Source: a candidate division WWE3 bacterium
GTDB lineage: Bacteria; Patescibacteriota; WWE3; 2-01-FULL-39-13
NCBI GenBank assembly: GCA_943354835.1
Contig: CALRDH010000001.1
Coordinates: 191,298-255,297, forward strand
Reading direction: 5' to 3'
DNA: 64,000 nt
The translations under genes were made by a program, and so were the position numbers. The notes below the pieces were generated by a model. The model had not been told where the DNA came from. It saw nothing but the letters and a program-made list of their open reading frames with translations, and made no database searches. This document shows positions 3,032 to 62,115 of this stretch, piece by piece; positions within the stretch are counted from its first letter, which is position 1, and each line of letters begins with the position of its first letter.

Positions 3032-4204
3032 ATGAAAAATTTCGATCCCTATCAAATTATCACCATCGTACTTTCTATAGCAATTATCGCGTCTATTGGA
3101 GTTTTTATTTATAACCTATCGTTTGGTGGTTTTGGCAAAGCCGCTTTAAGTGTTGATACACAAAATGGCAAAGCAACAGTAATTATTAATGGAAAAGATA
3201 AAGGGGAAACACCTGTTTATACGGAAGAACTTAACGCAAAAAATATAAATGTCCAAGTAAATGGTGAAGGTGCTTCGTATAGCACAATTGTTAAACCTGC
3301 AGGAGGAACTTTGGCCGTCATAAAAAGAGAACTTGGTGCAGGTGGAGCTTTTAGCTCTGGCTTAAATATTTGGTTTACTAAAGGTTCTGGGGCAGATTCA
3401 ATAATTTCTGTTATATCCCCAGATAGTGAAGGCGTTTCTGTTATTGTTGATGGCGTTGAAATGGGAAAAACACCAGTTAAGTTTTCAACTGGGGATTTGT
3501 TAAAGCAAAATGCTGAAGGCAAATATGTTCTTACTTTTAAAAAAGATAGATATCAAGATCAAGAAGTAGAAATAAAAGTTAAGCCTGGATATGAATTAAA
3601 TATTAGAACGGACATGTTTTTGAAACCCTTATCATCTGAAATTGTTTCATTAAGTGGATTTGCAGAAGGAATAAGATTTGTCGGATTTAAAGGAATGACA
3701 GATGCGGCTTTTGCCGACCGAAAGGTCTGGGCAAAAGCCGCATCCTACTGGCTTTCTTCTCGTGGTGCAATCACATTTGATGGAAATAAGATTGAAAAAT
3801 TTAATTACTTTTTATCCGATGACGGAAAGATTTTCAATTCAGAAGCAAATGAAATTTCAGCCGAAGACCTAAAGGTTGAATCAGGAAATGTTGTAATGTA
3901 TTTAGGTTCTGGAAATGATTCAAATATTTCAGATCCCGCAAAAACTATTATCGAAAAGGCAACTGGGAAAATTTCTCCTGCAGCTCCAAGCGCAGATGGA
4001 AAAGGAAGAATTAAAATTAAACCAACTGGCATTGGATATTTAAAGGTTCGAAGTTCCGCTTCAACTGGAAGCACCCAAGTAGGAAAAGTTGATGAAGGCA
4101 CTATTTTCAATGTTATTGAAGTTAAAAATGGATGGTATAAAATTTCTTACGAAACTGGTAAAGATGGTTGGGTTAGTGGAACGTATGTTGAAAGCGTCGA
4201 TTAA
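3032..4204 (+). CDS. Membrane-anchored protein with PEGA-like repeats and C-terminal bacterial SH3 (SH3b) domain
   Basis: N-terminal TM helix; VxVDGxxxGxTP PEGA-like segments; C-terminal GYLKVRSSASTGSTQVGKVDEGTIFNVIEVKNGWYKISYETGKDGWVSGTYV resembles SH3_3. Confidence 0.5.
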   Translation: MKNFDPYQIITIVLSIAIIASIGVFIYNLSFGGFGKAALSVDTQNGKATVIINGKDKGETPVYTEELNAKNINVQVNGEGASYSTIVKPAGGTLAVIKRELGAGGAFSSGLNIWFTKGSGADSIISVISPDSEGVSVIVDGVEMGKTPVKFSTGDLLKQNAEGKYVLTFKKDRYQDQEVEIKVKPGYELNIRTDMFLKPLSSEIVSLSGFAEGIRFVGFKGMTDAAFADRKVWAKAASYWLSSRGAITFDGNKIEKFNYFLSDDGKIFNSEANEISAEDLKVESGNVVMYLGSGNDSNISDPAKTIIEKATGKISPAAPSADGKGRIKIKPTGIGYLKVRSSASTGSTQVGKVDEGTIFNVIEVKNGWYKISYETGKDGWVSGTYVESVD

Positions 4205-7601: not shown

Positions 7602-9145
7602 CTTGTTTTGGGTGTATAAAATGTAGTTTTAGGAAGTTCTCCAAACATCATTCTAGTTTCTGCATACAAAAATGGAACGAATGAAAATGTTAGCAAATTC
7701 AGCATTAACGCCGGACCTTCGATTATTGCGATAATTCTTCGCCAAAGCGGCCATTCTTTTGGAAGGCTACCCTTATATAGCATCATACGAACATATGTTG
7801 CTGGTATAAAAATAAAAAGCCCTCCTGTTAGTATTATGCTTAAAACTTGAGGAAGTCCGTAAACCGTTGAGGAATTTTTAAAAGCTGTATTAACAAATGT
7901 AATCAAAGAAAATCCGACTGTAATTAAAAAAGCGCTAGTTCTCATTAATAAATGTCGTTCAATTTTTGAATAACCCCACAATATTTTTTGTTCTAACGTA
8001 GCTTTTTTATTGTTTGCTTGTTTTAAGATTGCTTTTAATGCTATTACTGTTGTAACGCTTCCCCATCCCCATCTGACAAGTTGTTTATACAAATTCTGAT
8101 TTGCATTTATAAAATTTTTGCCGCCTGTTGCATCTCCATAAATTGGAATATAAAAATGCTTCTCGGAAAAATCTCCTTCTCTTGCGCCAAATGCTCTCCA
8201 GTAAAATACAGTATCGTCAATCAATGTTGTATCCCAAAAATCAGCTGCGATTAGTGTATCAAGTGCGCACGAATAACACGAAAACGACTCTTTTGGCATG
8301 CTGAAAAGATGACCCGAGGTCCAATTTGAAAGCATTCCTAAAGTTACATTGTTTGCTTCGATTCTCGAAGTTAAAGGAACTGTCCAGATATTATTGCTAA
8401 AAAGATGTACAACGGTTTCATAAAATCTATTAAATCTTTTTGCATCAATCAAATATTCGTATGCAATTCTTGAAAGAAATTCTTTGTGGATTTTCCAGTC
8501 AGAATCGTATGTTGTGAATATATAATTCTTAATATTTTTACTTTGTTTTAAAAGCTCTTTGACTGCATGCTTTGCTGCCCATGCTCTATTTGGTGAAGCT
8601 ACTCCAACAATTTCTCCGGGGATTCCTTTTGGATGTGCAAAAAACATTAATTCTGGAAAATTATTTTTATCATAATTTCCACGGATTTTTTCTAAAGTAC
8701 TTTTAACTTTTTCTTCGCCGAACTCTTCAACTCCAACAACCAATAAAATATTTTTAACTGGGAATGAAGATTTTATTATTGTTTCGATAGTTTCACTTAA
8801 AATTTCATAACCTTCGCTTACTGTAGGGATTAATATTAAATGCTTGAGTTTGTCTAGGCTTTCGGGTAAGGTTTCATTATTTGGAAGGTCTTTAAAATTT
8901 AATTCTTTGCATTTTTCGTACCAATCTATTGAAATTTCCTTTTCGTAAATTTTGTAACCTTTAATTAGCCCGATTCCATGAGTTATTGCCATATATACCC
9001 AATAAACTGCTAGATACGTTAGTATAAATGCAGCGATTTTTGGAGCTATAAGACCAAGCCAAATTGGCATAAGAAGCATTGTCCAAGTTAATACACCCGG
9101 AACTGCCATTAAAAATCTGTCTAATTTATTTTTCGTATCGATCAT
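7598..9145 (-). CDS. Membrane glycosyltransferase, GT2-like processive synthase (QxxRW motif)
   Basis: 515 aa with TM helices flanking a cytoplasmic domain carrying DSDW and QLVRWGWG (QxxRW), reminiscent of cellulose/chitin-synthase-like GT2. It overlaps the neighbours by 4 nt, so is likely operonic. Confidence 0.4.
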   Translation of the reverse strand: MIDTKNKLDRFLMAVPGVLTWTMLLMPIWLGLIAPKIAAFILTYLAVYWVYMAITHGIGLIKGYKIYEKEISIDWYEKCKELNFKDLPNNETLPESLDKLKHLILIPTVSEGYEILSETIETIIKSSFPVKNILLVVGVEEFGEEKVKSTLEKIRGNYDKNNFPELMFFAHPKGIPGEIVGVASPNRAWAAKHAVKELLKQSKNIKNYIFTTYDSDWKIHKEFLSRIAYEYLIDAKRFNRFYETVVHLFSNNIWTVPLTSRIEANNVTLGMLSNWTSGHLFSMPKESFSCYSCALDTLIAADFWDTTLIDDTVFYWRAFGAREGDFSEKHFYIPIYGDATGGKNFINANQNLYKQLVRWGWGSVTTVIALKAILKQANNKKATLEQKILWGYSKIERHLLMRTSAFLITVGFSLITFVNTAFKNSSTVYGLPQVLSIILTGGLFIFIPATYVRMMLYKGSLPKEWPLWRRIIAIIEGPALMLNLLTFSFVPFLYAETRMMFGELPKTTFYTPKTR

Positions 9146-9912
9146 TTTAATTTAAAAAATGCAAAGGCATTTTTCGTGGTTCTATCTTCTACCTCTTTTG
9201 TGGAAATCCCTTTGATTTCAGCAATTTCTTGTGCTACAAGTTTAACATATTTCGATGAATTTACTTTTACTCCAGCCTTTTTGGCGCTTATCGGAATTAG
9301 GTATGGAGAATCTGTTTCTAACATTATTTTTTCTAGTGGAATTCTTTTTATGGCGTCTCTTAAATCACCCGCGTTTGGGTATGTAACGATGCCTGTTATA
9401 GATAACATAAGTCCAAGATCTAAGGCTTTTTTTGCGGTTTCGTAATTTTCGCAAAAACAGTGCCAGACGGCGGGAAATGGGGCGCGCCCCATTTCCCGCC
9501 CTAATATATCTAATAAATCTTCTGTCCCTTGTCTTGAATGTATTATTATTGGCAAATTCAATTCTCTTGATATTTCAATTTGAGAAATAAACAAGGATGC
9601 TTGAGCATCCTTGCTTCTCTTTATTTCTGGTAAGTGTGGATTTGTATAATCAAGTCCACATTCTCCAATTGCGACAACTTTTTTGCTTCTTGCTAATTCT
9701 TTTATCAATTTCAATTTTTCCCCGTCTGGGATTTCATTTTCGGGAATTACATCATGAGGATAAAGTCCGCATGTTGCAAAAACGTGATCATTTGAATTTG
9801 CTTTTTCTACTGCGTTTTTAGCTTCAGACAATGTGTGTCCGATGAGTATCTCTATGTCTGCTCTTTCTTCGTTGTTTTCGGATATTGAGTGAGTGTGCGT
9901 ATCAACAATCAT
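9142..9912 (-). CDS. tatD: TatD-family metal-dependent hydrolase/DNase
   Basis: MIVDTHTHS... (HxH), ...IGECGLDY..., ...WHCF... and ...ETDSPYL... are the four TatD metal-binding motifs in order. Confidence 0.85.
   Translation of the reverse strand: MIVDTHTHSISENNEERADIEILIGHTLSEAKNAVEKANSNDHVFATCGLYPHDVIPENEIPDGEKLKLIKELARSKKVVAIGECGLDYTNPHLPEIKRSKDAQASLFISQIEISRELNLPIIIHSRQGTEDLLDILGREMGRAPFPAVWHCFCENYETAKKALDLGLMLSITGIVTYPNAGDLRDAIKRIPLEKIMLETDSPYLIPISAKKAGVKVNSSKYVKLVAQEIAEIKGISTKEVEDRTTKNAFAFFKLK
9469..9500. repeat. 32-bp perfect GC-rich palindrome GGCGGGAAATGGGGCGC|GCCCCATTTCCCGCC embedded in the tatD coding sequence
   Basis: Read directly; it encodes the GREMGRAPFPA loop of TatD. GC-rich in an AT-rich genome. 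Confidence 0.7.
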
Positions 9913-16403: not shown

Positions 16404-17498
16404 ATGTCTTCTGCTTATAAGATTTGTGAAAAGTGTGATAGTGCATATACAGGAAGTGTTTGCTTAAAATGCGGGCATTTTGAAGATGCATCACATAATG
16501 ATAATCGGCTTGATGACACTGCGCAGAAGTCAGAAGACTTTGGTTTTCTGACTTCTGCGATTAATGAGAATCGTTCCAAACTTTCAGCAGATTTAAAAAG
16601 TGTTAAAAAGAAATCCCGTGGGTTTTTCTTTCCTTTGTTTCTTGGCATGGTTCTTTTAGGTATTGGAGGATATGCATATTTTCGTTTTATCTATTTTACC
16701 CCTGAATATATTAGTCCTGCTGTGCTTTCCGCACAGATAACAAAAAAGCCTGGTGAGATAGTTAACGAAGTTGTGGAAATCTTCGATTCTAAAGAAAAAT
16801 CTATTCCTTTAGATATTGGGCATGAAGAGGGTAATTTCGATCAGTATGATTTTGCACAGTTTGCTTCTCCCGATACATCTTTGCTTATTACTGCATTTAA
16901 TATCAGAGACGTTCTTTCAAAATATTATGAAGATAAGGGAATTTTAAAAAATTTAAAGTCCGAATTTGATTTATCTGATAATGATATTGATGTGTTTTTC
17001 TCAAAAGGGTTTGCAGTTTATTTCCCTGATAGCGATTTTTCCAAGTGGGGATTTGCAATTTATGTTGAAGACCAGAATTTTGTTGATTCACGTGTTAGTA
17101 AGTTGAAAGATAAAAAAGAGAAGAAGGGATTCGCTTTTAAAGATTATTTTGCTGACGTTGTAGAAATAAAATCGGATGATGAGAAGTCGATGCATTTTCT
17201 TTTAGTATCGAATTCAAAAGAATATCTTGATCAGATGAAAGAATCTTCAGAGGGAAACCTTACGAATTTAGCTGTGGATATAAAATATACTAGAGTTAAA
17301 ACTGATTTGCCAAAACTTGGACAAATTTCCTTTTACAGAAAAACTGATTCCTCTATTTGGAATTTAATGGTCGAGTGGATCGCTTCAAAATATGATTATG
17401 TTGGTTTAGACAAGATCTTATCTGCAATAGATGCTCCTGGCATAGTCTTTTTTTCAAACAGCCAAAAACTAAAAATAACAACAGCCGATGTGATGTGA
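16404..17498 (+). CDS. Hypothetical membrane protein with N-terminal zinc-ribbon
   Basis: CEKCDSAYTGSVCLKCGHF CxxC...CxxC ribbon, one TM helix, then a large extracytoplasmic domain. Confidence 0.4.
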   Translation: MSSAYKICEKCDSAYTGSVCLKCGHFEDASHNDNRLDDTAQKSEDFGFLTSAINENRSKLSADLKSVKKKSRGFFFPLFLGMVLLGIGGYAYFRFIYFTPEYISPAVLSAQITKKPGEIVNEVVEIFDSKEKSIPLDIGHEEGNFDQYDFAQFASPDTSLLITAFNIRDVLSKYYEDKGILKNLKSEFDLSDNDIDVFFSKGFAVYFPDSDFSKWGFAIYVEDQNFVDSRVSKLKDKKEKKGFAFKDYFADVVEIKSDDEKSMHFLLVSNSKEYLDQMKESSEGNLTNLAVDIKYTRVKTDLPKLGQISFYRKTDSSIWNLMVEWIASKYDYVGLDKILSAIDAPGIVFFSNSQKLKITTADVM

Positions 17499-30618: not shown

Positions 30619-30623
30619 CCCTT
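30611..30623. terminator. Recurring 13-nt hairpin motif AAGGGTAGCCCTT spanning the stop codons of two convergent genes
   Basis: The same motif (or its reverse complement) occurs at 18266, 32203 and 60000. Here the TAG stop of the + gene and TAA stop of the - gene both lie inside it. Confidence 0.3.
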
Positions 30624-31491
30624 ATAATTCCTCTAGCTCTCCGAGTCCAGATTCTTTTCTGTCTATATAGCGAAGGTAGTTTTCTGTTGTGGTTAGTCTT
30701 TTGTGTCCTGCGATTTTAGAGACGAGAAGAACGCTTGCTCCTCTTTTGAGGTGTTCTGCTACAAATGTGTGTCTTAAATCATTTACAGTGACGTCATCGA
30801 GCTGAATTTGTTTAAGATATCTTCCAATTGTCGCTCTTATGTTTCTAACTAGTAATGGATTTCCTGTTTTTGTTACGAATAAATGGTCGAGTTTTGAAGA
30901 AGGTCTTTCTTTTAGAAAGCCTTTTATTGCAGAAATTACTGCAGAATTAAGAGGAATTGTTCTGCCTGGGTTTTCTTTTGTTCCAGGTACTTCTAAAATT
31001 CCTTTTGCATCATGTTCTATTTTTATGTGATCGACTTTAATAAATGCTAATTCAGATATTCTAAGGCCTGTTTGAAGGAAGATTTCTATTATTGCACGTG
31101 TTCTTATATCGTCTTTTACTGTATCTCTTAACGCTCTGTACTCGATTTTAGTTAATATTCTTGGAGCATTTTGCTCAAGCCTTGGATGTTGAATAAATTG
31201 TGCAGGATCGTTTTCTATAATTCTTTCGTCAAGAAGAAATTTAAAAAATGTTTTGATTGCATTTATTTTTCTTGAGATAGTTTTTTTTGTGTAATTACTG
31301 TCCGATAGGTTTCTTAAGAAGTTCTCAATAATGGATTTACTAAGCTCGTGGGCACTTGATATATTTTGCCTTACTGCGAAGTCTGCTAATTGCTCAATAT
31401 CCTTTGCATAGGCCACAACAGTCGCTGTCGCTCTGCCTTTTGATATCAAACTCTGTACAAATTTTTCCCTCGCTGATGACAATAGTGTCAT
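30622..31491 (-). CDS. Tyrosine site-specific recombinase, XerC/XerD family
   Basis: 289 aa with catalytic R...HxxR...Y spacing (ARG, HDLRHTF, TENYLRY) and an N-terminal SAM-like core-binding domain. Confidence 0.8.
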   Translation of the reverse strand: MTLLSSAREKFVQSLISKGRATATVVAYAKDIEQLADFAVRQNISSAHELSKSIIENFLRNLSDSNYTKKTISRKINAIKTFFKFLLDERIIENDPAQFIQHPRLEQNAPRILTKIEYRALRDTVKDDIRTRAIIEIFLQTGLRISELAFIKVDHIKIEHDAKGILEVPGTKENPGRTIPLNSAVISAIKGFLKERPSSKLDHLFVTKTGNPLLVRNIRATIGRYLKQIQLDDVTVNDLRHTFVAEHLKRGASVLLVSKIAGHKRLTTTENYLRYIDRKESGLGELEEL

Positions 31492-35994: not shown

Positions 35995-36963
35995 TATGAA
36001 TTTGCCTATAGTGGAAGTAGAAGCTGTTTTTTTTCCCAAGATGTTTTAGAAGCTTATGAATCTGCCCCCAGGCCTAAATATCTAGTAGCAGGGTTAAGTG
36101 TTGAATTTAAAAGTGACAGAAAACCTAAATCTGTTCCAACTCCAGCGTGTCAACTTTTCGCAGTAAATAATACTGAAAGTCATGATGTTTACTTTTTTGT
36201 ACAAGATAATGGTTGTGATTTTGAAGCCGACTTAACAAGTCTTGATGCATGTGAGTCTATTGTACTAAGTTATATTTTGCTTGGTTATGATGATAAATTC
36301 AGTATATCGGAGGATACAAAAGTTTATTTAATTAAACGATGTTTACAACTCGGTCAAGACTTCGATAAAACTGTTTCTTATATTTATGCAAAAACGGGGG
36401 TTGATATTAAAGATGTTACTGTTATGGCTATCTCTACAGAAGATTTAAATGCAGATTTAGGTATGCGTGCAAAAAATATTCAAAGTCTGTGTACTAGACG
36501 GTGTAGCGATTCTGAAGTTGAAAGATTGCTCCCCGAAATATTGAAGGCATTACCTAATAAAAAAATTGTTAAAGGCGATGAATTAAAAGAAATTAAGCCG
36601 ATTCAGTGGGATGTTGACGAAAAAGGACGTTCTTATCTAAAAATTTTCAATCGTTATGGTCATTCGTTTTTTTTATATGAGCCAAATGGAAAGCCTAAGT
36701 ATGTTGTTGAATCCTGTGCGACTGAAATTTCAAAAGTACATGGAGGTGGTAGTTTTCCGTTTTTAGCAATTCAACTTGCAATTAGTAATGGAGGTGAAGT
36801 TTCTGAAGAAGTGCTATTAGGCTTAGCAAAGGGACAAGGTCATAAAGCTGGTTTAGCGCAATTGCTTAAAGGATGTGGAATTTTTTGTTTTGATAAAAAA
36901 AGTCGCATGTATTATTTAGATACTCTTGGCGGAGGGGGGGGGATTCGAACCCCCGTGCCATAA
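35995..36963 (+). CDS. Hypothetical protein (ORF extended upstream of the track call to ATG at 35995)
   Basis: The reading frame is open from the TAA at 35962 through an ATG at 35995 into the track ORF 36277..36963 (its first codon is TTG). The 3' 37 nt overlap tRNA-Ser(CGA) on the opposite strand. Confidence 0.4.
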   Translation, partial: YEFAYSGSRSCFFSQDVLEAYESAPRPKYLVAGLSVEFKSDRKPKSVPTPACQLFAVNNTESHDVYFFVQDNGCDFEADLTSLDACESIVLSYILLGYDDKFSISEDTKVYLIKRCLQLGQDFDKTVSYIYAKTGVDIKDVTVMAISTEDLNADLGMRAKNIQSLCTRRCSDSEVERLLPEILKALPNKKIVKGDELKEIKPIQWDVDEKGRSYLKIFNRYGHSFFLYEPNGKPKYVVESCATEISKVHGGGSFPFLAIQLAISNGGEVSEEVLLGLAKGQGHKAGLAQLLKGCGIFCFDKKSRMYYLDTLGGGGGIRTPVP

Positions 36964-37014: not shown

Positions 37015-37075
37015 GCGAATGTCTTTTAGTGTACGTGCTTATTTTATCGTATAATTAGTGACGAAGCCATATTGT

Positions 37076-37152
37076 GCACTCGTAGCTCAGCTGGATAGAG
37101 CGCAACTTTGCGGAAGTTGAGGTCACAGGTTCAAATCCTGTCGGGTGCACCA
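37076..37152 (+). tRNA. tRNA-Arg (anticodon GCG as folded; unusual)
   Basis: GCACTCGTAGCTCAGCTGGATAGAGCGCAACTTTGCGGAAGTTGAGGTCACAGGTTCAAATCCTGTCGGGTGCACCA has a perfect anticodon stem CAACT/AGTTG and loop TTGCGGA. Confidence 0.7.
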
Positions 37153-37182: not shown

Positions 37183-37836
37183 ATGAAAAACGGTGAAAAT
37201 GAAATTGATACGATTATTTTTGATGTAGATGGTACATTGTCTGAGGAAGTCTCATGGTTAAAACTCACCGATGGATTGGGCGCCTCATCTGAAACTCATG
37301 CCCAGATATTTGCTAAATTCAAAAACGGAGAATTAAAATATCCGGAAGCCAAACAAAAGCTTATTTCATTATGGCAAGAAACCGGAAATGCGAATAAAGG
37401 ATATATGGAAGATATGTTTAGATCGTGGAATCTAAAAGGTGATGCTGTTGAAACTATGGAGTATCTTAAGGCGTCGTATCGAATTTGTTTAATGTCAGGT
37501 GCTGTCGATCTGTATGTCAAAGTGGTTGCTGAAAAGTTGGGAATAGATCATTGGTATGCTAATACAGAACTTGTTTGGGATGAAGTCGGAAACCTTATTG
37601 ATTTTCATTATTTTGCGGATCAATCAGAAAAGAAACTAGAGCATTTTTACGAATATATCGCTAAATTCGGTTTGCTTACATGTCAATGTGCCGTGGTCGG
37701 TGATGGGGATAGTGATATTGCATTATTTAGAGAATTACCTTTTGGGGTTGCAGTAAACAAGCAACCGAATTCTGAATTAGAAGCTTTGGCAACAAGAACT
37801 ATATCTGATTTAAGTGAGTTACAAGGAATTTTCTAG
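37183..37836 (+). CDS. HAD-superfamily hydrolase (subfamily IB, phosphoserine-phosphatase-like)
   Basis: MKNGENEIDTIIFDVDGTL (motif I DxDGT) ... VVGDGDSD (motif IV). The track ORF starts inside tRNA-Arg; this start is the first ATG after the tRNA. Confidence 0.6.
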   Translation: MKNGENEIDTIIFDVDGTLSEEVSWLKLTDGLGASSETHAQIFAKFKNGELKYPEAKQKLISLWQETGNANKGYMEDMFRSWNLKGDAVETMEYLKASYRICLMSGAVDLYVKVVAEKLGIDHWYANTELVWDEVGNLIDFHYFADQSEKKLEHFYEYIAKFGLLTCQCAVVGDGDSDIALFRELPFGVAVNKQPNSELEALATRTISDLSELQGIF

Positions 37837-37846
37837 CGGATATCTT

Positions 37847-39238
37847 TTATATCTTTTCATAAATCACTCCCTGCGCGTCTCTTTGAACTTCGGTGTAGTT
37901 GTATTTTGCGGGATTTTCACGAAGTAGTAAATCAAGAAATGTTCCGTTTGCGATTAGCAAATAATTTGTTTCATATTTGTTTAAAATCTGTTCCCAATCT
38001 GGTTGGGTTTGTGTTATTTTTAGCCATGTTGTGTATGGGCTTTCTCCGTTTTCACCTATCCATGCTGGCATTCTTCCGTCTATAAAAAATTTCATATTTG
38101 GTAATTTCCATACTAAAAAACCTCCCCATTCGTATGTGTTATATACATTTCCTGACTTATCCTTAAAGAATTCAACTTGATTGTTAAGAAATTGATCTTG
38201 GCCTTTATTATATTTATTTATCGAAACTACATTCGTAAATCCGAAATAAAGTATTAGGCCAAAAAGACATAAAAAGGAAAAATCATGAATAAATGAGGTC
38301 CATTTTTTTGGCATTTTAAATTTCCTGAATTCATAGCTTGCGAATATTACAGCTGAAAAATAATAAATCGGAAGATTTCTGCGGGCCGAAATTGCAAGGT
38401 ATGTCGATAATAAAAGAAGAACCAAAAAGAATATATTGAAATTTTTATAATTGGTTTTTGACAAATGTATGTAAAACAAAACTCCAGTTAGTGAAAGTAT
38501 CAAAAGAACATAATTTTGTGGAGGCGGAACCCATTCAGCAATTAATGTGTTCATTGGAATTTGCATGTGGTGATAAATTTCTAGGTAAATTCGGTAGCCA
38601 AATGGATTTATTAGAGTTGCGAGTATTCCTGTTATTGTGAGAAATATAAAACTTCTAAATTCACGGAAATCAACTTTTTTGAAAATCCATCTGTAAAAAA
38701 CATTTGCTGTGTAAATTCCCAAAACAATTGGCCCTAAGAAAAATCCTGCATGTGTGTTTGCCCAAATTAAAAATAGTAAGGGAAGAAGATATACAAGCTT
38801 TTTTCGTGATAAAAGGTAGATCTCTAGAAATAAAAATAAAAGCGTCATGAATTGAGACCTGAATCCAAGTGAAATCGTCGACCATGAAAAAGCCGTCGCA
38901 ATTAAAATAAGAGACATCTTTACTAGGAAATCTCCACGCATGGTTTTGTAAATCACAAAGATTATAAGCGATGAAACTATGGTTCCGATTATGCTAATTG
39001 CTACAAATCCACCAACATCGAAGGTTAGTGAAATTAGTGCGTCGTATATAAAACTTGGATATGCCCATTTGTAATCTTTTAAGAAATAGGTAAATGTATT
39101 GTCAATGCATGGTTTTTGAAGCTTGAGAAGTTCGCTTCCGCATCTGTAATGCCAGCCGAAATCCGGGTCTGTGTTTGGAATGAGGAATAGAAAAAAGATG
39201 AATGCAAAGAAGGATATGAAAAGTGTGTGCTTTCGCAT
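37847..39238 (-). CDS. GT-C-fold polytopic membrane protein, paralog 4
   Basis: 463 aa with 12+ TM helices. Confidence 0.4.
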   Translation of the reverse strand: MRKHTLFISFFAFIFFLFLIPNTDPDFGWHYRCGSELLKLQKPCIDNTFTYFLKDYKWAYPSFIYDALISLTFDVGGFVAISIIGTIVSSLIIFVIYKTMRGDFLVKMSLILIATAFSWSTISLGFRSQFMTLLFLFLEIYLLSRKKLVYLLPLLFLIWANTHAGFFLGPIVLGIYTANVFYRWIFKKVDFREFRSFIFLTITGILATLINPFGYRIYLEIYHHMQIPMNTLIAEWVPPPQNYVLLILSLTGVLFYIHLSKTNYKNFNIFFLVLLLLSTYLAISARRNLPIYYFSAVIFASYEFRKFKMPKKWTSFIHDFSFLCLFGLILYFGFTNVVSINKYNKGQDQFLNNQVEFFKDKSGNVYNTYEWGGFLVWKLPNMKFFIDGRMPAWIGENGESPYTTWLKITQTQPDWEQILNKYETNYLLIANGTFLDLLLRENPAKYNYTEVQRDAQGVIYEKI

Positions 39239-39251
39239 CTTTCTATTATAC

Positions 39252-39293
39252 GGGCCAGGCCCGAAAGGGCCTAGGCCCTTTCGGGCCTGGCCC
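39252..39293. repeat. 42-bp perfect GC-rich palindrome GGGCCAGGCCCGAAAGGGCC-TA-GGCCCTTTCGGGCCTGGCCC forming the core of a divergent promoter pair
   Basis: Read directly. Each half contains a GGCCC-GAAA/TTTC-GGGCC hairpin. A TATAAT lies 1 nt beyond the left end on the minus strand, and TAGAAT lies 10 nt beyond the right end on the plus strand (ATG at 39317). Confidence 0.7.
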
Positions 39294-39316
39294 CCATAGA
39301 ATGCTAGAATATCCGC

Positions 39317-41092
39317 ATGGACAGTATTTCCGAAATAAAATCAAAGTTAAATATCATCGACCTTATAGGAACTTATACTCCTTTAAAGCAGTCTGGCAAA
39401 AATCACAAAGGTTTGTGTCCGTTTCACTCTGAAAAAACACCGTCATTTATGGTTTCCGAAGATCTCCAAAGATATAGATGTTTTGGCTGCGGAAAAAGTG
39501 GCGATGTCTTCAACTTTATTATGGATGTTGAAGGTGTAGATTTTCCTGAAGCCTTAAAAGTCCTTGCTGAAAAAACTGGAGTAAAACTTGATTTAAAGTC
39601 TGATGCTTTTAACAAAAAAGATAAAGATGCGACATCAAAAATATATGAGATCAATGAAATCGCTTCGAAGTTTTATCAGCATTTATTGAATAAACACGAA
39701 TTTGGCGAAGTCGGCCGTGCTTATATAAAAAAACGCCAGGTTTCCGCAAAAATTGTTAAGGATTTTGGTATCGGATACGCGCCAAATTCGTGGGATAGCC
39801 TTTCAAGATATTTGATTTCAAAAAAATTTACAGCAGAAGAAATTATTAATTCAGGCCTTGGTAAATATAGGAAATCTTCTAAAAACACTTACGATATTTT
39901 TCGCGGACGTCTGATGTTTCCATTAAGAGACAACATGGGCCGAATAACAGGCTTTTCCGGGAGAGCACTTTTTGAAGATCAAGATCCAAAATATATAAAT
40001 ACAGCTGAAACAGAAGTTTTTCATAAAGAAAGATTTCTTTTCGGTCTTGATTTGGCGAAAAACGCAATTCGAAAGGCTAATTTGGCGATTATTGTCGAAG
40101 GTGAATTCGATATGATTTCGCCTTATCAAGCTGGTTACGAAAATATTGTTGCTTCTAAAGGAACGGCTTTAACAATGGGACAAGTGAATTTATTAAAAAG
40201 ATATGCTCAAACAATTGTTTTGATTTTCGATAATGATGTCGCCGGAGCCGATGCCTCAGTACGTGGAATCGACATTATTAAAGATTGCGGACTCGATATA
40301 AAAATCGCAGTTTTGCCGGAAGGTTCAAAAGATCCTGACGAACTTATTAAAAAAGATACAAATTTATTTGGTGAGGTTGTTAGAAATGCATTGCCTTTGT
40401 GGGATTATTATTTTTCGTATGCTTCAAGCAAATATAATTTGTCTAATATCTTTGAAAAGAAAAAGGCTTCGCAGTTTTTGATAAATATTATTAATGAAAT
40501 CGAGGATGAGGTTGTCAGGTCAACATATATTAAAAAGTTCTCTGTGCTTTTTGATGTTGATGAATCAGTTGTAAAAAATCAAATTGATAAAAGTGTTCCT
40601 TCAACAAGAAGTAGATTTACGACTGATGTTCCAGAAAAAATAGTTATGGAAAGTGGTTTTGAAGATTATCCAGGTTCTGAAGTTTATGTTTTAACTCTTT
40701 TGATGGATGCAAATAATTTAGAATTCGAAGCTTTTTCAAATGTAATTAATCCAGATTTTTTTACAAATCAGTTTATTAAGGATTTATTTATAGAACTTAC
40801 GGATAGTAGAAAAGATTCAAAAAGCTTTGATGTAAAGGCCTTTTATGCTAAACTTCAGCACAGTCACCCTAATGTATATAGTTTGTTTGAAAAAGTTTAT
40901 TTACGTGGCAGATTTGAAGATACGCAGTCTCTTTCTGATGAGATCGCATTTGCTATTTTGCGCTTAAAACAAGCCTTCCAAAAAAGAAGGCGTAAAGAAT
41001 TGGCGGTTGCCATTGCAAAAGCTGAAGCGGTTTCTGATTTTACTCTTGTTGCAAGTTTGCAAAAAGAGGTTAAAGAGGTTTCGAATCTTTGA
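39317..41092 (+). CDS. dnaG: DNA primase
   Basis: Zinc ribbon [13 protein letters not shown]...CFGCGKSGD, then TOPRIM ([15 protein letters not shown]); 591 aa. Confidence 0.9.
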
Positions 41093-41114: not shown

Positions 41115-42389
41115 ATGGCTTCTTCAATTAAGAACAATCCAAAGATTAAAAATCTTATAAATAAAGGACGAAGTAAAGGTCACGTTACGTATCAAGAGAT
41201 TTTGAGCGCAATTCCACAGGTAGAAGAAGATCTAGAAGTTTTGGATGAACTTTATGGAATTTTGCTTGAAGATAAGATTGAAGTTCTTGAAGATACGGTT
41301 GATTTAGAGGAAGAAGCTTCTAAGGGAGTTTTAGATCTTCAGAAAGAATTGAAAGAGACAAGTCTTCAGTCGACTTTGGATCGTGCGATTACAGGAGATC
41401 CTGTTCGTATGTATTTAAGAGAAATTGGTCGAGAAGGTCTTTTAACAGCAGCCGAAGAGGTTGAGCTTGCTCAAATGGTCGAAGCTGTTGCTTATCAAGA
41501 TGCAATCGCTGAACTTACAAAAAAAGGCGTTAAAAAACCAAATTACAAACAAATCGCAGAGCTTATGCTTCAAGGAGAGTTTGATGATGTTGGTAAAAAA
41601 CTTCGTGTTGATCAATCAAAAAAACAACTCGAAGATTTTACTTCCAATAAAAGAACTTTTAAGATGAAGAAGGCTAGGTATAGATTGATTAATTCAAACC
41701 TTCGACTTGTTGTTTCCATCGCAAAGAGATATATGAATCGTGGTCTTACTTTTTCGGATCTTATTCAAGAAGGAAATATAGGACTTATGAGGGCTGTTGA
41801 TAAATTTGATTGGCGACGTGGATTTAAATTTTCAACATATGCAACATGGTGGATAAGACAGGCAATTACAAGAGCTATTGCTGATCAAGCAAGAACTATA
41901 AGAATTCCTGTTCACATGATTGAAACTATTAATAAGCTTAAAAGGATTCAAAGAGAACTTGAACAAAAGTATGAAAGAGAAGCAACGGCAAAAGAAATCG
42001 GAAAAGTCATGGGAATTGAGCCTGAAAAAGTCGAAGAGATTTTAAAGATTTCTCAAGAGCCAAGTAGTCTTCAAGCAAAAGTTGGAAAAGAAGGCGATAC
42101 GGAACTTTCAGAATTTATTGAAGATTTAGATACTGAAACTCCAGAAGATATGGCTTCATACGAACTCTTGAAGGGTCATATTGTTGAGGTTTTGGATACT
42201 TTAAGCGAAAGAGAACAGAAAGTTTTGGAGTTGCGCTTTGGCCTCAAAGACCATAAGCCACGAACGCTTGAAGAAGTCGGAAAAGTTTTTGGTGTTACAC
42301 GTGAGCGTATTAGGCAGATCGAGGCCAAAGCGCTTAGAAAGTTAAGACATCCAAGCAGAAGCAGAAAATTAAGAGATTATCTTGATTAA
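41115..42389 (+). CDS. rpoD: RNA polymerase primary sigma factor (sigma-70)
   Basis: Regions 1.2 to 4 are present: [79 protein letters not shown]. Start chosen at the [11 protein letters not shown] after the dnaG stop rather than the overlapping TTG in the track. Confidence 0.9.
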
Positions 42390-55439: not shown

Positions 55440-55800
55440 CTTCGCCTGGATATCTATCTAAGGCATTTGGAACAGAATCTAAATCATCGTCTGTAAAAAA
55501 ATCCCATTCTGGAGTATTTGGATTTGGGTCAATTGCATCAACCAATTTATCGCCATCAGAATCATTAACAAATTCGAGTGGGAGTACGTCTACGACTTTT
55601 GTAACAATAGGAAGCAAAACCTCTTCATAGACTTCTGGTCTACGTTCATCATCGTCATCTTCTTCCTCCTCCTCGTTTTCTTCTTCGTCATCATCTTCCG
55701 CAAAAATGCTTGTCGGGTTAATAATATTTTGCTTTTCATACGAAAAAAGCATCAGCCCGAGAATTAAAAATATAATTGATAATAACGTTAATTTTTTCAT
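55369..55800 (-). CDS. Secreted acidic protein with DSDGD Ca-binding-like motif
   Basis: Signal peptide; EDDDEEENEEEEEDDDDE tract; DSDGDKLVDAIDPNPN resembles Tsp3/dockerin-type Ca-binding loops. Confidence 0.35.
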   Translation of the reverse strand: MKKLTLLSIIFLILGLMLFSYEKQNIINPTSIFAEDDDEEENEEEEEDDDDERRPEVYEEVLLPIVTKVVDVLPLEFVNDSDGDKLVDAIDPNPNTPEWDFFTDDDLDSVPNALDRYPGEDDFSYIPFEDINKNGINDAIELL

Positions 55801-56168
55801 GATGTTTTTGTAACTGGTTTTGATTGTGGTTTCATAAATTTTTGTGTTTGCTGTGGAAGCGTTACCGTTGTTTTTATAGGAACTGCTCTTTGTGCGATTA
55901 AATCAGGTTGTCTTGCCAAAAGCTGATTATATTGGGTCTGGATTTCAGCCATCTTATCTCGGTTTTGTTTTTGTATCGCTTGAATATTTTCCAAATTCGA
56001 CTTTTGATACAGTGTCCAATTATTAAATGCACCTTCTTTAGCTTGTCTTGAAAGTGCAAGCTTTTCGATTTTTTTAGATCTCTCTGTAAAAAGAACCGCA
56101 AAACTAGAAGATGCGAAAAATACAATTGTAATTACAACCAAAGCGAGTCTTAAAAAAATCTTATTCAT
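55797..56168 (-). CDS. Secreted coiled-coil Q-rich hypothetical protein
   Basis: 123 aa with signal peptide and Q/K-rich helical region; translationally coupled to neighbours. Confidence 0.35.
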   Translation of the reverse strand: MNKIFLRLALVVITIVFFASSSFAVLFTERSKKIEKLALSRQAKEGAFNNWTLYQKSNLENIQAIQKQNRDKMAEIQTQYNQLLARQPDLIAQRAVPIKTTVTLPQQTQKFMKPQSKPVTKTS

Positions 56169-57440: not shown

Positions 57441-59063
57441 TTGATATTTCTTATGTATAAAACATTTAAATCTGGACGGTTTCATTACTTTATTCTTATT
57501 TCTTTTTTATTAATCGCTCTTTTTTTTAGGTTTTATAATCTTGGATATTCTGATTTTCAAGGGGATGAAGCGAAAATTTTTTTATATAGAACATTAGATC
57601 AGGATTTTATTTCAACTTTATTTACAAATTCCAAGGGTCCGGGGCAATATATCGTTGTTTATCTGATGGATAAAATATATGGGATTATCGGCGGAGGTTT
57701 TGACCAAGAACCTTTTTTTAGAATTCCATTTGCTTTAGTCGGGGGAGGTTCCGTCTGGCTTTTTTATAGACTTGGAAAATTATTTGGCGGCAAGAATGCA
57801 GGCTTGTATGCCTGCATTCTTGCCAGTTTAAATGGATTTTTCATTGCTTTTTCTCGGATTGTTCAATACCAATCTTTCAATATCCTTTTGTCCTTAATAT
57901 CATCTATATTTTTTATAATTTATCTGAAAAATAAATCTAAAAAACACTTGTTTGTATCCGGGTTTGTGTCAGCAATTGGTTTCCTTTTCCATTATGACGC
58001 GATTTTTTACATCGTTCCTCAATGCATAATCCTACTTCTTTCTCTAAATCGAGAAACTTTAATTAGAAATATTTCAGCTTATATTTTTGGTTTATCATTT
58101 GTTCTAGTTTTCTTTTTGCCTTATATATTTAGTAGTTCATTTTATTCAACTATAAATTACATTTTGAACGAAAGGTCAATTGGCTTTTTTAGTTACGATT
58201 CCATTTATTATGGTTTTAAATTGATATCAATATATTTCCCTAAGGAATTTGTAATTTCAATTGGTCTAGTTTTATGTTTATCGTTTATTTTTTGGTATAA
58301 AACACACCGAGACAAATTGGTTTTGATATTACTTTTTTTAATCACAGCTTTAATTATTGCCAGATATATTAATGTTGAGCCACGGAGAATTCTAATTTTC
58401 CCATCAACATTTTTAGCAGTATTTGCAATTATTATTTTTCTAATGAAAAAATTAAAAGTTTCATTAATAGATAGCTACTTGTTTCTATGGGTCAGTATTT
58501 CTTTCGTAGTTTTCTTCTTATTTTTAAACAAACCGTTAACTCATATCTACAATGTTTTTATTCCATTAACTTTTGTTGTTGCAATTAATTTTGATAGATT
58601 AAAGTATCATTTAACAAAAATTATTGGGCTGTCGTTGGTAACTCTTGCATTAATATCATTCAATTATCAAGCTTATATTGAAAACGGCTCGGAATATCCA
58701 TGGAGTAAAAAAACATACCTATTTGGCGATATGTATAGTGGGATTTCAGAAGGTGAGATAGTTCGAGGGATCTTTGGTTTTCCATATTATAGGAATTTAA
58801 ATAATCTAGGCATGTCAGTTTCATCAATTATTCAAAAAAATGAAAAGCCTATTTTATACTCAAACATTAAGGACTCAAGGCTTAAGTTTTATGTTGACGC
58901 GAAATATCCTGCTAATGGAAGTAATGAAATTCCTGTGTATGTAGAAATTAAAAACTCTATTGACTATGAAGGCAATTATCCACCAAAGGATTTGATTTTA
59001 GAAAAAGTTTTGGAGACGACATGGTATTCTGTTTATAGAGGAAAGTTTTATGTCTTTTATTAA
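57441..59063 (+). CDS. GT-C-fold glycosyltransferase (PMT_2/ArnT-like), paralog 6
   Basis: YNLGYSDFQGDEAKIFLY (DE motif in the first periplasmic loop), 12+ TM helices, C-terminal soluble domain. Confidence 0.5.
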   Translation: MIFLMYKTFKSGRFHYFILISFLLIALFFRFYNLGYSDFQGDEAKIFLYRTLDQDFISTLFTNSKGPGQYIVVYLMDKIYGIIGGGFDQEPFFRIPFALVGGGSVWLFYRLGKLFGGKNAGLYACILASLNGFFIAFSRIVQYQSFNILLSLISSIFFIIYLKNKSKKHLFVSGFVSAIGFLFHYDAIFYIVPQCIILLLSLNRETLIRNISAYIFGLSFVLVFFLPYIFSSSFYSTINYILNERSIGFFSYDSIYYGFKLISIYFPKEFVISIGLVLCLSFIFWYKTHRDKLVLILLFLITALIIARYINVEPRRILIFPSTFLAVFAIIIFLMKKLKVSLIDSYLFLWVSISFVVFFLFLNKPLTHIYNVFIPLTFVVAINFDRLKYHLTKIIGLSLVTLALISFNYQAYIENGSEYPWSKKTYLFGDMYSGISEGEIVRGIFGFPYYRNLNNLGMSVSSIIQKNEKPILYSNIKDSRLKFYVDAKYPANGSNEIPVYVEIKNSIDYEGNYPPKDLILEKVLETTWYSVYRGKFYVFY

Positions 59064-62084: not shown

Positions 62085-62115
62085 GGCGGTCGCGAAAGCG
62101 ACCGCCTTTTTTTTT
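62085..62115 (+). terminator. Rho-independent terminator GGCGGTCGC-GAAA-GCGACCGCC plus T9
   Basis: 9-bp GC-rich stem, GNRA loop and 9 consecutive T, located 40 nt after the RRM gene stop. Confidence 0.65.

Follow-up and report, generated by a model that had tools for sequence, protein, structure and literature searches.

The locus upstream of dnaG in this WWE3 bacterium raises the question of why an AT-rich genome carries a perfect GC-rich palindrome between two divergent genes, one of which encodes the DNA primase, and whether this palindrome controls them. In the 64,000-nucleotide stretch of DNA analysed here (the window) and its relatives, the palindrome is most likely not a control switch of dnaG, but an unstable and dispensable hairpin. 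The explanation that we favour, at somewhat better than even chances, is that of a low-copy, lineage-restricted, dispensable GC-rich hairpin element residing in promoter-proximal non-coding DNA of one WWE3 (Katanobacteria) clade.

The palindrome (GGGCCAGGCCCGAAAGGGCCTAGGCCCTTTCGGGCCTGGCCC, positions 39252-39293, belonging to neither strand in particular) is housed in a 78-bp spacer (39239-39316) between a minus-strand ORF (37847-39238) and dnaG. It is laid out as GGGCCAGGCCCGAAAGGGCC-TA-GGCCCTTTCGGGCCTGGCCC and forms 21 complementary pairs around its centre, and the description of a perfect 42-bp palindrome given in an earlier note on this DNA is therefore exact as written. Its GC content is 76%, compared with about 35% for the window. 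Within the palindrome, three shorter palindromic modules can be distinguished, namely GGGCCAGGCCC (39252-39262), GGGCCTAGGCCC (39267-39278) and GGGCCTGGCCC (39283-39293), which are connected by GAAA and TTTC as joints. The 20-mer half occurs at a single locus in the window at up to three mismatches and 100 shuffles gave 0 matches, which bears out the claim that the palindrome goes beyond chance. In single-stranded form, it adopts a single 19-bp hairpin (-27.2 kcal/mol, z = -8.0). The half-hairpins GGCCC-GAAA-GGGCC described previously are present in both halves, but the three-way junction proposed along with them is 16.5 kcal/mol worse than the plain hairpin under RNA parameters (-29.3 vs -45.8 kcal/mol).

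Palindromes of this kind break short-read assemblies, and the Logan contig of run ERR5863117 (L002:1-30) terminates 13 bases into the palindrome, which is a typical assembly break. Such a break within one assembly is what an artefact, for instance a fold-back chimera or an error in the assembly graph where contigs join, would leave behind. Nevertheless, a separate NCBI MAG contig (second assembly GCA_943353295.1, contig CALRAR010000013.1) carries the identical palindrome sequence including both flanks, while the unrelated sample SRR19514063 has, at the same site, a variant with a compensated change. Moreover, the GC-rich arms are not copied from the local flanks, unlike the product of a fold-back chimera. 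The palindrome is real, and the chance of an artefact is very slight.

On the plus strand, the palindrome is followed by dnaG (39317-41092), which encodes a DNA primase with Pfam primase domains, and then by rpoD (about 41115-42389). Homologues of this DnaG assign the window to candidate division WWE3 (Katanobacteria, candidate phyla radiation). The gene divergent from dnaG (37847-39238, minus strand) encodes a multi-pass membrane protein of 463 amino acids whose family is unassigned; it had no match in Pfam (E up to 5), NCBIfam or the sequences of the PDB, and a BLASTP comparison with two further ORFs of the window that encode membrane proteins (one is PMT_2-like) returned nothing. The single-sequence AlphaFold model of this protein had a pLDDT of 45 and was unusable, and the GT-C label that the earlier note gives to the protein is accordingly putative. 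The -10 box of the membrane-protein gene, TATAAT (39250..39245, minus strand), is separated by 1 nt from the palindrome, and 6 nt (AGAAAG) intervene between its 3' end and the ATG at 39238. The corresponding box in relatives reads TATAAT, TACAAT or TACTAT, with the spacing unchanged. The earlier note was thus right that this TATAAT adjoins the left end, but the box is 6 nt rather than 13 nt from the ATG. On the other side, dnaG is preceded by the extended -10 element TGcTAGAAT (39302-39310, plus strand), in which TGc comes directly before the proximal TAGAAT (39305-39310), and a further 6 nt (ATCCGC) lead up to the ATG at 39317. A distal TAGAAT (39297-39302, plus strand), 3 nt from the palindrome, ends 14 nt before the same ATG. 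A TAGAAT to the right of the palindrome is therefore present as claimed, but as two boxes, 14 and 6 nt before the ATG, and not as one at 8 nt. The distal box belongs to CATAGAATGC, which is confined to alleles with the palindrome or an 11-mer stump (the window and the related lineages L021 and L008) and has the appearance of the -10 region duplicated in tandem over 8 bp.

Strict -10 hexamers in the window peak at -12/-13 from the start codon (11/61 genes), while a Shine-Dalgarno-like core is found in merely 4/61 genes. Because the hexamers pile up at this distance and Shine-Dalgarno cores are rare, both -10 boxes beside the palindrome look like real promoters, and leaderless transcription appears common in the window. 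The placement of the palindrome between two divergent -10 elements is thus upheld, as both match the window-wide peak. The spacing suggests that the membrane-protein gene might be transcribed as a leaderless mRNA, and that leaderless mRNAs from -10 or extended -10 promoters may be common in this WWE3 genome. A consensus scan of the region detected no promoter combining a -35 with a -10 element, and the palindrome therefore supplies no recognisable -35 boxes. The -10-like hexamers at the gene starts of the window often take the form TGnTAnAAT, with examples at 16404, 35434, 45817 and 55797-56168.

If the palindrome were an operator of these promoters, it would be expected to stay with them, and this was examined by comparing the orthologous dnaG upstream sites of the window and six related lineages, for which the dnaG nucleotide tree is ((((window,L020),L007),L008),L022,(L021,L023)), L008 standing for a lineage type. 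The full 42-bp palindrome of the window is missing from its closest relative L020 (DnaG 97% identical), where the site is empty with a 44-nt AT-rich spacer, and from L007 (92%), where the site is likewise empty with a 42-nt AT-rich spacer very similar to that of L020. The L008 type (87%; a DnaG with this identity is that of WWE3 bacterium CG_4_9_14_0_2_um_filter_35_11) has only the stump GGGCCAGGCCC, while L021 (86%) has a perfect 41-bp palindrome, GGGCCAGTCCCGAAAGGGCC-T-GGCCCTTTCGGGACTGGCCC (L021:3215-3255). The site is empty in L022 (82%), and L023 (81%) has the stump GGGCAGGGCCGAAA. Of the seven lineages, 2 hence have an intact palindrome, 2 a stump and 3 none, and the dnaG upstream regions of remoter WWE3 and other Patescibacteria genomes contain nothing comparable. 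On the contrary, GCTAGAAT-N6-start codon is kept in 7/7 lineages whether the palindrome is present or absent, and the extended -10 element of dnaG is unchanged in the relatives without the palindrome. The membrane-protein orthologues are intact in L007, L020, L021, L022 and L023. Conservation of the promoters thus does not extend to the palindrome, whose distribution disagrees with the dnaG tree. These results speak against the view of a shared promoter-specific operator: the extended -10 element is universal in this set, while the palindrome is lacking in L020, L007 and L022 and is a stump in L008 and L023.

A second site provides a further argument against that view. In L007, an imperfect 42-bp copy (GGGCCTGGCCCAAAAGGGCCTAGGCCGTGAAGGGCCAGGCCC, L007:1288-1329) is inserted between TATAAT and the first base of tRNA-Arg(GCG), i.e., downstream of the tRNA-Arg promoter, which is a different position relative to a promoter from that at dnaG. 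This copy is about 1.7 kb from dnaG, and the two sites lie about 1.7-2 kb apart. In the window, the second site is empty (37050-37075, plus strand) and consists of the tRNA-Arg promoter TATAAT (37050-37055) and a 20-nt leader in front of tRNA-Arg(GCG) (37076-37152); it is also empty in L020 and L021, and the 20-nt leaders are nearly identical. L008-type genomes have GGACCTGGCCC at the tRNA-Arg site, and L023 has another, different stump. Altogether, three full copies and four stumps were found, all in one narrow clade and at two neighbouring sites. The segment between both sites comprises tRNA-Arg, an optional HAD hydrolase gene and the membrane-protein gene. The HAD hydrolase gene (37183-37836) is present in the window and L001 and absent from L007 and L020, and a 228-aa upstream ORF (36277-36963), which overlaps tRNA-Ser, is called in L001 and not in L020; gene content beside tRNA genes is variable in this neighbourhood. 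In addition, the membrane-protein orthologue of the L008 type is spread over three frames (L027:8692-9841, also in GCA_002774885.1) and is a frameshifted pseudogene, and in this same lineage both palindromic elements have collapsed to 11-mers.

Although sporadic, the palindrome has kept its full symmetry where it occurs intact at the dnaG site. Between the window and L021, 38/40 arm bases are identical, while the dnaG genes are merely 78.7% identical. The arm change in L021 is mirrored (G8T with C35A), with T at the centre instead of the TA of the window, and in the L007 copy the pair A6/T37 is flipped to T/A. Across the three copies, 2 of the 19 pairs carry changes in both arms and 0 in a single arm; the two changed pairs are transversion pairs for which no G-U intermediate is possible. 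The covariation observed (two pairs in three sequences) was reached by 43/500 shuffles, a weak statistic given so few copies. The double substitution in L021 breaks the outer 11-mers as local palindromes, as well as the small GNRA hairpins, while arm-to-arm pairing is kept. Since this change preserves the pairing of the arms and spoils the local modules, it favours a long hairpin or the copying of one arm from the other, and would speak against separate operators or a three-way junction.

Template switching has been reported to create and repair perfect stems via multibase compensatory changes (PMC8794818, PMC7202029). The palindrome resembles hairpins shaped by this process, also called quasipalindrome correction, in its perfect arms, mirrored transversion pairs and freely varying centres (PMC8794818, PMC7202029). 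As deduced from the pattern of changes, intrastrand template switching during replication might keep the arms symmetric at the DNA level by copying a change in one arm onto the other in a single event. Mirrored changes with no one-sided intermediates, which would be the mark of template switching, were found in the dnaG family and also in a hairpin within tatD described below, although the sample is small. Nevertheless, what this literature describes is a mutational mechanism rather than an element family, and template switching accounts for the kept symmetry, not for the presence of a GC-rich sequence or its occurrence at two sites. The stumps, on the other hand, are suggestive of how the element may be lost. 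The palindrome contains internal 5-bp direct repeats (GGGCC three times and GGCCC three times), and by inspection the L008 stump GGGCCAGGCCC corresponds exactly to what would remain after a deletion between the GGCCC at positions 7-11 and that at positions 38-42, while the stump at the tRNA site matches the analogous deletion product with one mismatch. Slippage between these repeats would collapse the palindrome to GGGCCWGGCCC. Its presence in the window lineage and not in the two closest relatives might reflect either re-acquisition, by recombination with a carrier allele or by insertion, or repeated loss.

According to the same explanation, any effect on dnaG or the membrane-protein gene would be incidental; the palindrome would take the place of the -35/UP region, and the negative supercoiling that divergent transcription generates could extrude it as a cruciform. 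If the element is indeed a dispensable hairpin, it says little about the regulation of dnaG. Instead, it would be a natural example of a perfect palindrome persisting in a tiny AT-rich genome of the candidate phyla radiation with arms evolving in concert, as well as an example of decay to an 11-mer by slippage between internal repeats, and it would indicate that -10-only promoters tolerate the replacement of upstream DNA. In practical terms, perfect symmetry alone is no evidence for an operator. Against this explanation stands the small sample (3 full copies and 4 stumps), on which any mobility or selfishness of the element would be putative. In addition, the conservation of the arms between the window and L021 together with the perfect symmetry could equally be explained by selection for function, and, as both sites adjoin promoters, a promoter-related role is conceivable.

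The most direct form of such a role is a dedicated cis-regulatory element, acting either as three operators for a dimeric regulator or as a supercoil-driven cruciform switch that co-regulates dnaG-rpoD and the membrane-protein gene. The operator version would consist of GGGCCWGGCCC, GGGCCTAGGCCC and GGGCCWGGCCC at a spacing of about 15.5 bp, similar to the OR region of phage lambda, where OR1-OR3 constitute a tripartite operator region between the divergent promoters PR and PRM. Like that region, the palindrome offers three short dyad-symmetric modules between back-to-back promoters, and both its modular anatomy and its position exactly between the divergent -10 boxes, at 1 nt and 3 nt, would suit a regulator. 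Moreover, a near-identical perfect palindrome is retained at the same site in the distant L021, the L008 stumps always correspond to the 11-mer module, and the lineage in which both elements have collapsed is the one with a pseudogene for the membrane protein. Unlike the lambda region, however, the full 42 bp are symmetric, spacers included, one family member is located in a tRNA leader, downstream of the tRNA promoter, and the element does not consistently accompany the promoters: the two closest relatives and L022 lack it while keeping the flanking genes and -10 boxes intact, and it is missing as well from the dnaG upstream regions of remoter WWE3 and other Patescibacteria genomes. Furthermore, no cognate regulator is in evidence, as no regulator gene adjoins the locus, and the double substitution of L021, which spoils the outer modules and keeps the arms paired, fits a hairpin. 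We therefore regard a dedicated cis-regulatory element as unlikely.

The proximity of the two sites invites a different reading, in which both would be targets for recombination or structure-specific cleavage that bracket a module of tRNA-Arg, the optional HAD gene and the membrane-protein gene, and a site-specific recombinase or hairpin-recognising enzyme would invert, excise or exchange this module. The sole two known sites do flank the same segment of roughly 2 kb, whose gene content varies (the HAD hydrolase gene of the window being absent in L007 and L020), and an Xer-like tyrosine recombinase is encoded 8 kb from the palindrome region (30622-31491). Likewise, the distribution of alleles, which contradicts the dnaG tree, could be explained by recombination. 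Yet two full copies occur together in no lineage, the segment is oriented alike in every lineage examined, and the recombinase gene is conserved and syntenic in the relatives whatever the state of the element. To our knowledge, the palindrome also does not resemble the architecture of dif or attC, which further counts against this reading, and we hold it to be distinctly improbable, more so than a regulatory element.

Returning to the dispensable hairpin element, its nearest counterparts were sought among known palindromic elements. The palindromic GC clusters of fungal mitochondria occur sporadically, show constraint on their stems and undergo exchange by recombination; among them, GC42 of Saccharomyces mitochondria is a 42-nt cluster with tens of copies per genome and flanking direct repeats of AG or ACT (PMC4478555). 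The element of WWE3 shares with these clusters a short GC-rich palindrome of about 42 nt in an AT-rich genome, a non-coding location and the lack of any encoded protein, as well as a sporadic occurrence among close relatives, stems that are more conserved than loops, and apparent exchange through homologous recombination (PMC4478555). On these grounds, the mitochondrial palindromic GC clusters may be considered its closest described analogues, although they are unrelated in sequence, the WWE3 host is a bacterium, and, unlike GC42, the element was found once in 64 kb and at two sites altogether, with no evident target duplication. REP/REPIN elements, which RAYT transposases mobilise, likewise have two inverted small-hairpin units that make up a long hairpin in extragenic DNA (PMC3116915, PMC3337134, PMC3733652). 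However, the palindrome is not high-copy, with one copy in the 64-kb window, and it lacks the GTAG or CGTC tetranucleotide that is conserved at one end of the REP unit (PMC3733652): its units start with GGGCC, and neither tag occurs at its ends or in the immediate flanks. As well, a Pfam search of about 61 ORFs of the window found no gene for a Y1/RAYT transposase, and membership in REP/REPIN was rejected on the end tag and the copy number.

Several searches point to a low copy number. A covariance model built from the three copies (window, L021 and L007) was run on the 64-kb window with filters off and scored the palindrome at 72 bits and the runner-up at 10.7 bits; on 227 kb of related loci, it recovered the L021 and L007 copies and no others. 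Fuzzy matching at up to 5 errors revealed no additional diverged copies in the loci examined. When the 20-mer half was compared with 185,579 GTDB species representatives, four GC-rich genomes were matched, and these matches look like chance. Wide dispersal was also rejected in IMG/VR, where two degenerate patterns gave nothing or chance matches in GC-rich contigs. Membership in a dispersed repeat family had been named beforehand as the observation that would speak against a promoter-specific operator, and it is borne out weakly: a second site does exist, but there is one such site, about 2 kb away, and the element is not high-copy. For all copies inspected, neither a target-site duplication nor an extension of the palindrome into the flanks was consistently found, the flanks being AC/CC, TC/TC and TC/AC. 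The Pfam search of about 61 ORFs likewise detected no transposase in the window, and an Rfam scan of the window matched tRNAs and no family at the palindrome. No relevant description was found in the literature on palindromic repeats in candidate phyla radiation genomes.

Several other identities were considered and rejected. An intrinsic terminator is not in question, with 0 terminator-like sites in 38900-39700 and both flanking genes pointing away from the palindrome. A canonical intrinsic terminator of this genome can be seen elsewhere in the window, between two plus-strand genes, where GGCGGTCGC-GAAA-GCGACCGCC (62085-62106) is followed by T9 (to 62115). GGCC is not avoided in the window (observed/expected 0.94), so that the six GGCC sites in the palindrome are not a restriction-modification signature. 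A replication origin or terminus was also dismissed, as the cumulative GC skew climbs almost steadily over the window with no switch at the locus.

In addition to the palindrome upstream of dnaG, perfect hairpins are found inside genes. Perfect inverted repeats whose arms reach 14 bp or more number five in the window, four of them inside genes, while first-order Markov simulations predict about 0.5 even at a looser cut-off of 12-bp arms. One of the four is a perfect GC-rich palindrome of 32 bp (GGCGGGAAATGGGGCG|CGCCCCATTTCCCGCC, 9469-9500) within tatD (9142-9912, minus strand), which was compared with the homologues at L032:1513-2283, L033:1117-1887 and L034:10001-10774. Its 15-bp arms are perfect in four lineages, and its centre varies among CG, TC, AT and AA. 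In L034/L035, two adjacent compensated transversion pairs cause the replacements Met to Ile, Gly to Arg and Pro to Glu; here too, both arms have changed in 2 pairs and a single arm in 0, with pairing in 100% of cells. The hairpin is absent from the L021-type lineage (L036). An insertion of the Rickettsia palindromic element type was rejected for tatD because the peptide REMGxAPFPAVWHCF and the length are conserved in relatives. The tatD hairpin is thus a parallel case to the dnaG palindrome in the same genomes. A perfect palindrome of 22 bp is also present near it, at 9592-9613. The remaining perfect inverted repeats in protein-coding genes (3701-3744, 16522-16559 and 57789-57824) have arms of 14-15 bp and loops of 6-14 nt; for that at 3701-3744, L032, L034 and L036 share identical arms, and L036 differs by four changes in the loop.

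These in-gene hairpins seem to be a recurrent and conserved feature of the WWE3 clade, and such recurrence of perfect hairpins in coding genes is the part of this analysis most deserving of a dedicated study. It also allows a broader reading, which we rate as no likelier than the dedicated regulatory element, i.e., with a rather small chance of being correct: selection in the clade may maintain a collection of GC-rich DNA or RNA hairpins with perfect pairing, which structure-specific machinery would recognise. The members might include the dnaG/tRNA-Arg element and the hairpins inside tatD, a PEGA/SH3 gene and other coding regions; the recogniser may be a nuclease, a recombinase, a primase or an RNA-processing enzyme; and the 42-bp palindrome may be a mobile or duplicable member marking promoter-proximal DNA. 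If true, bacteria of the candidate phyla radiation would have a new class of structured cis-element here rather than neutral debris. As a separate observation, a distant Patescibacteria relative (L010, DnaG identity 39%) carries the identical 42-nt GC-rich sequence CGAATGCCGCAGGCGCGACGGCGCCGAGGCGGGGTCGAGCAA twice in AT-rich DNA, at L010:1008-1049 and 1160-1201, 152 bp apart.
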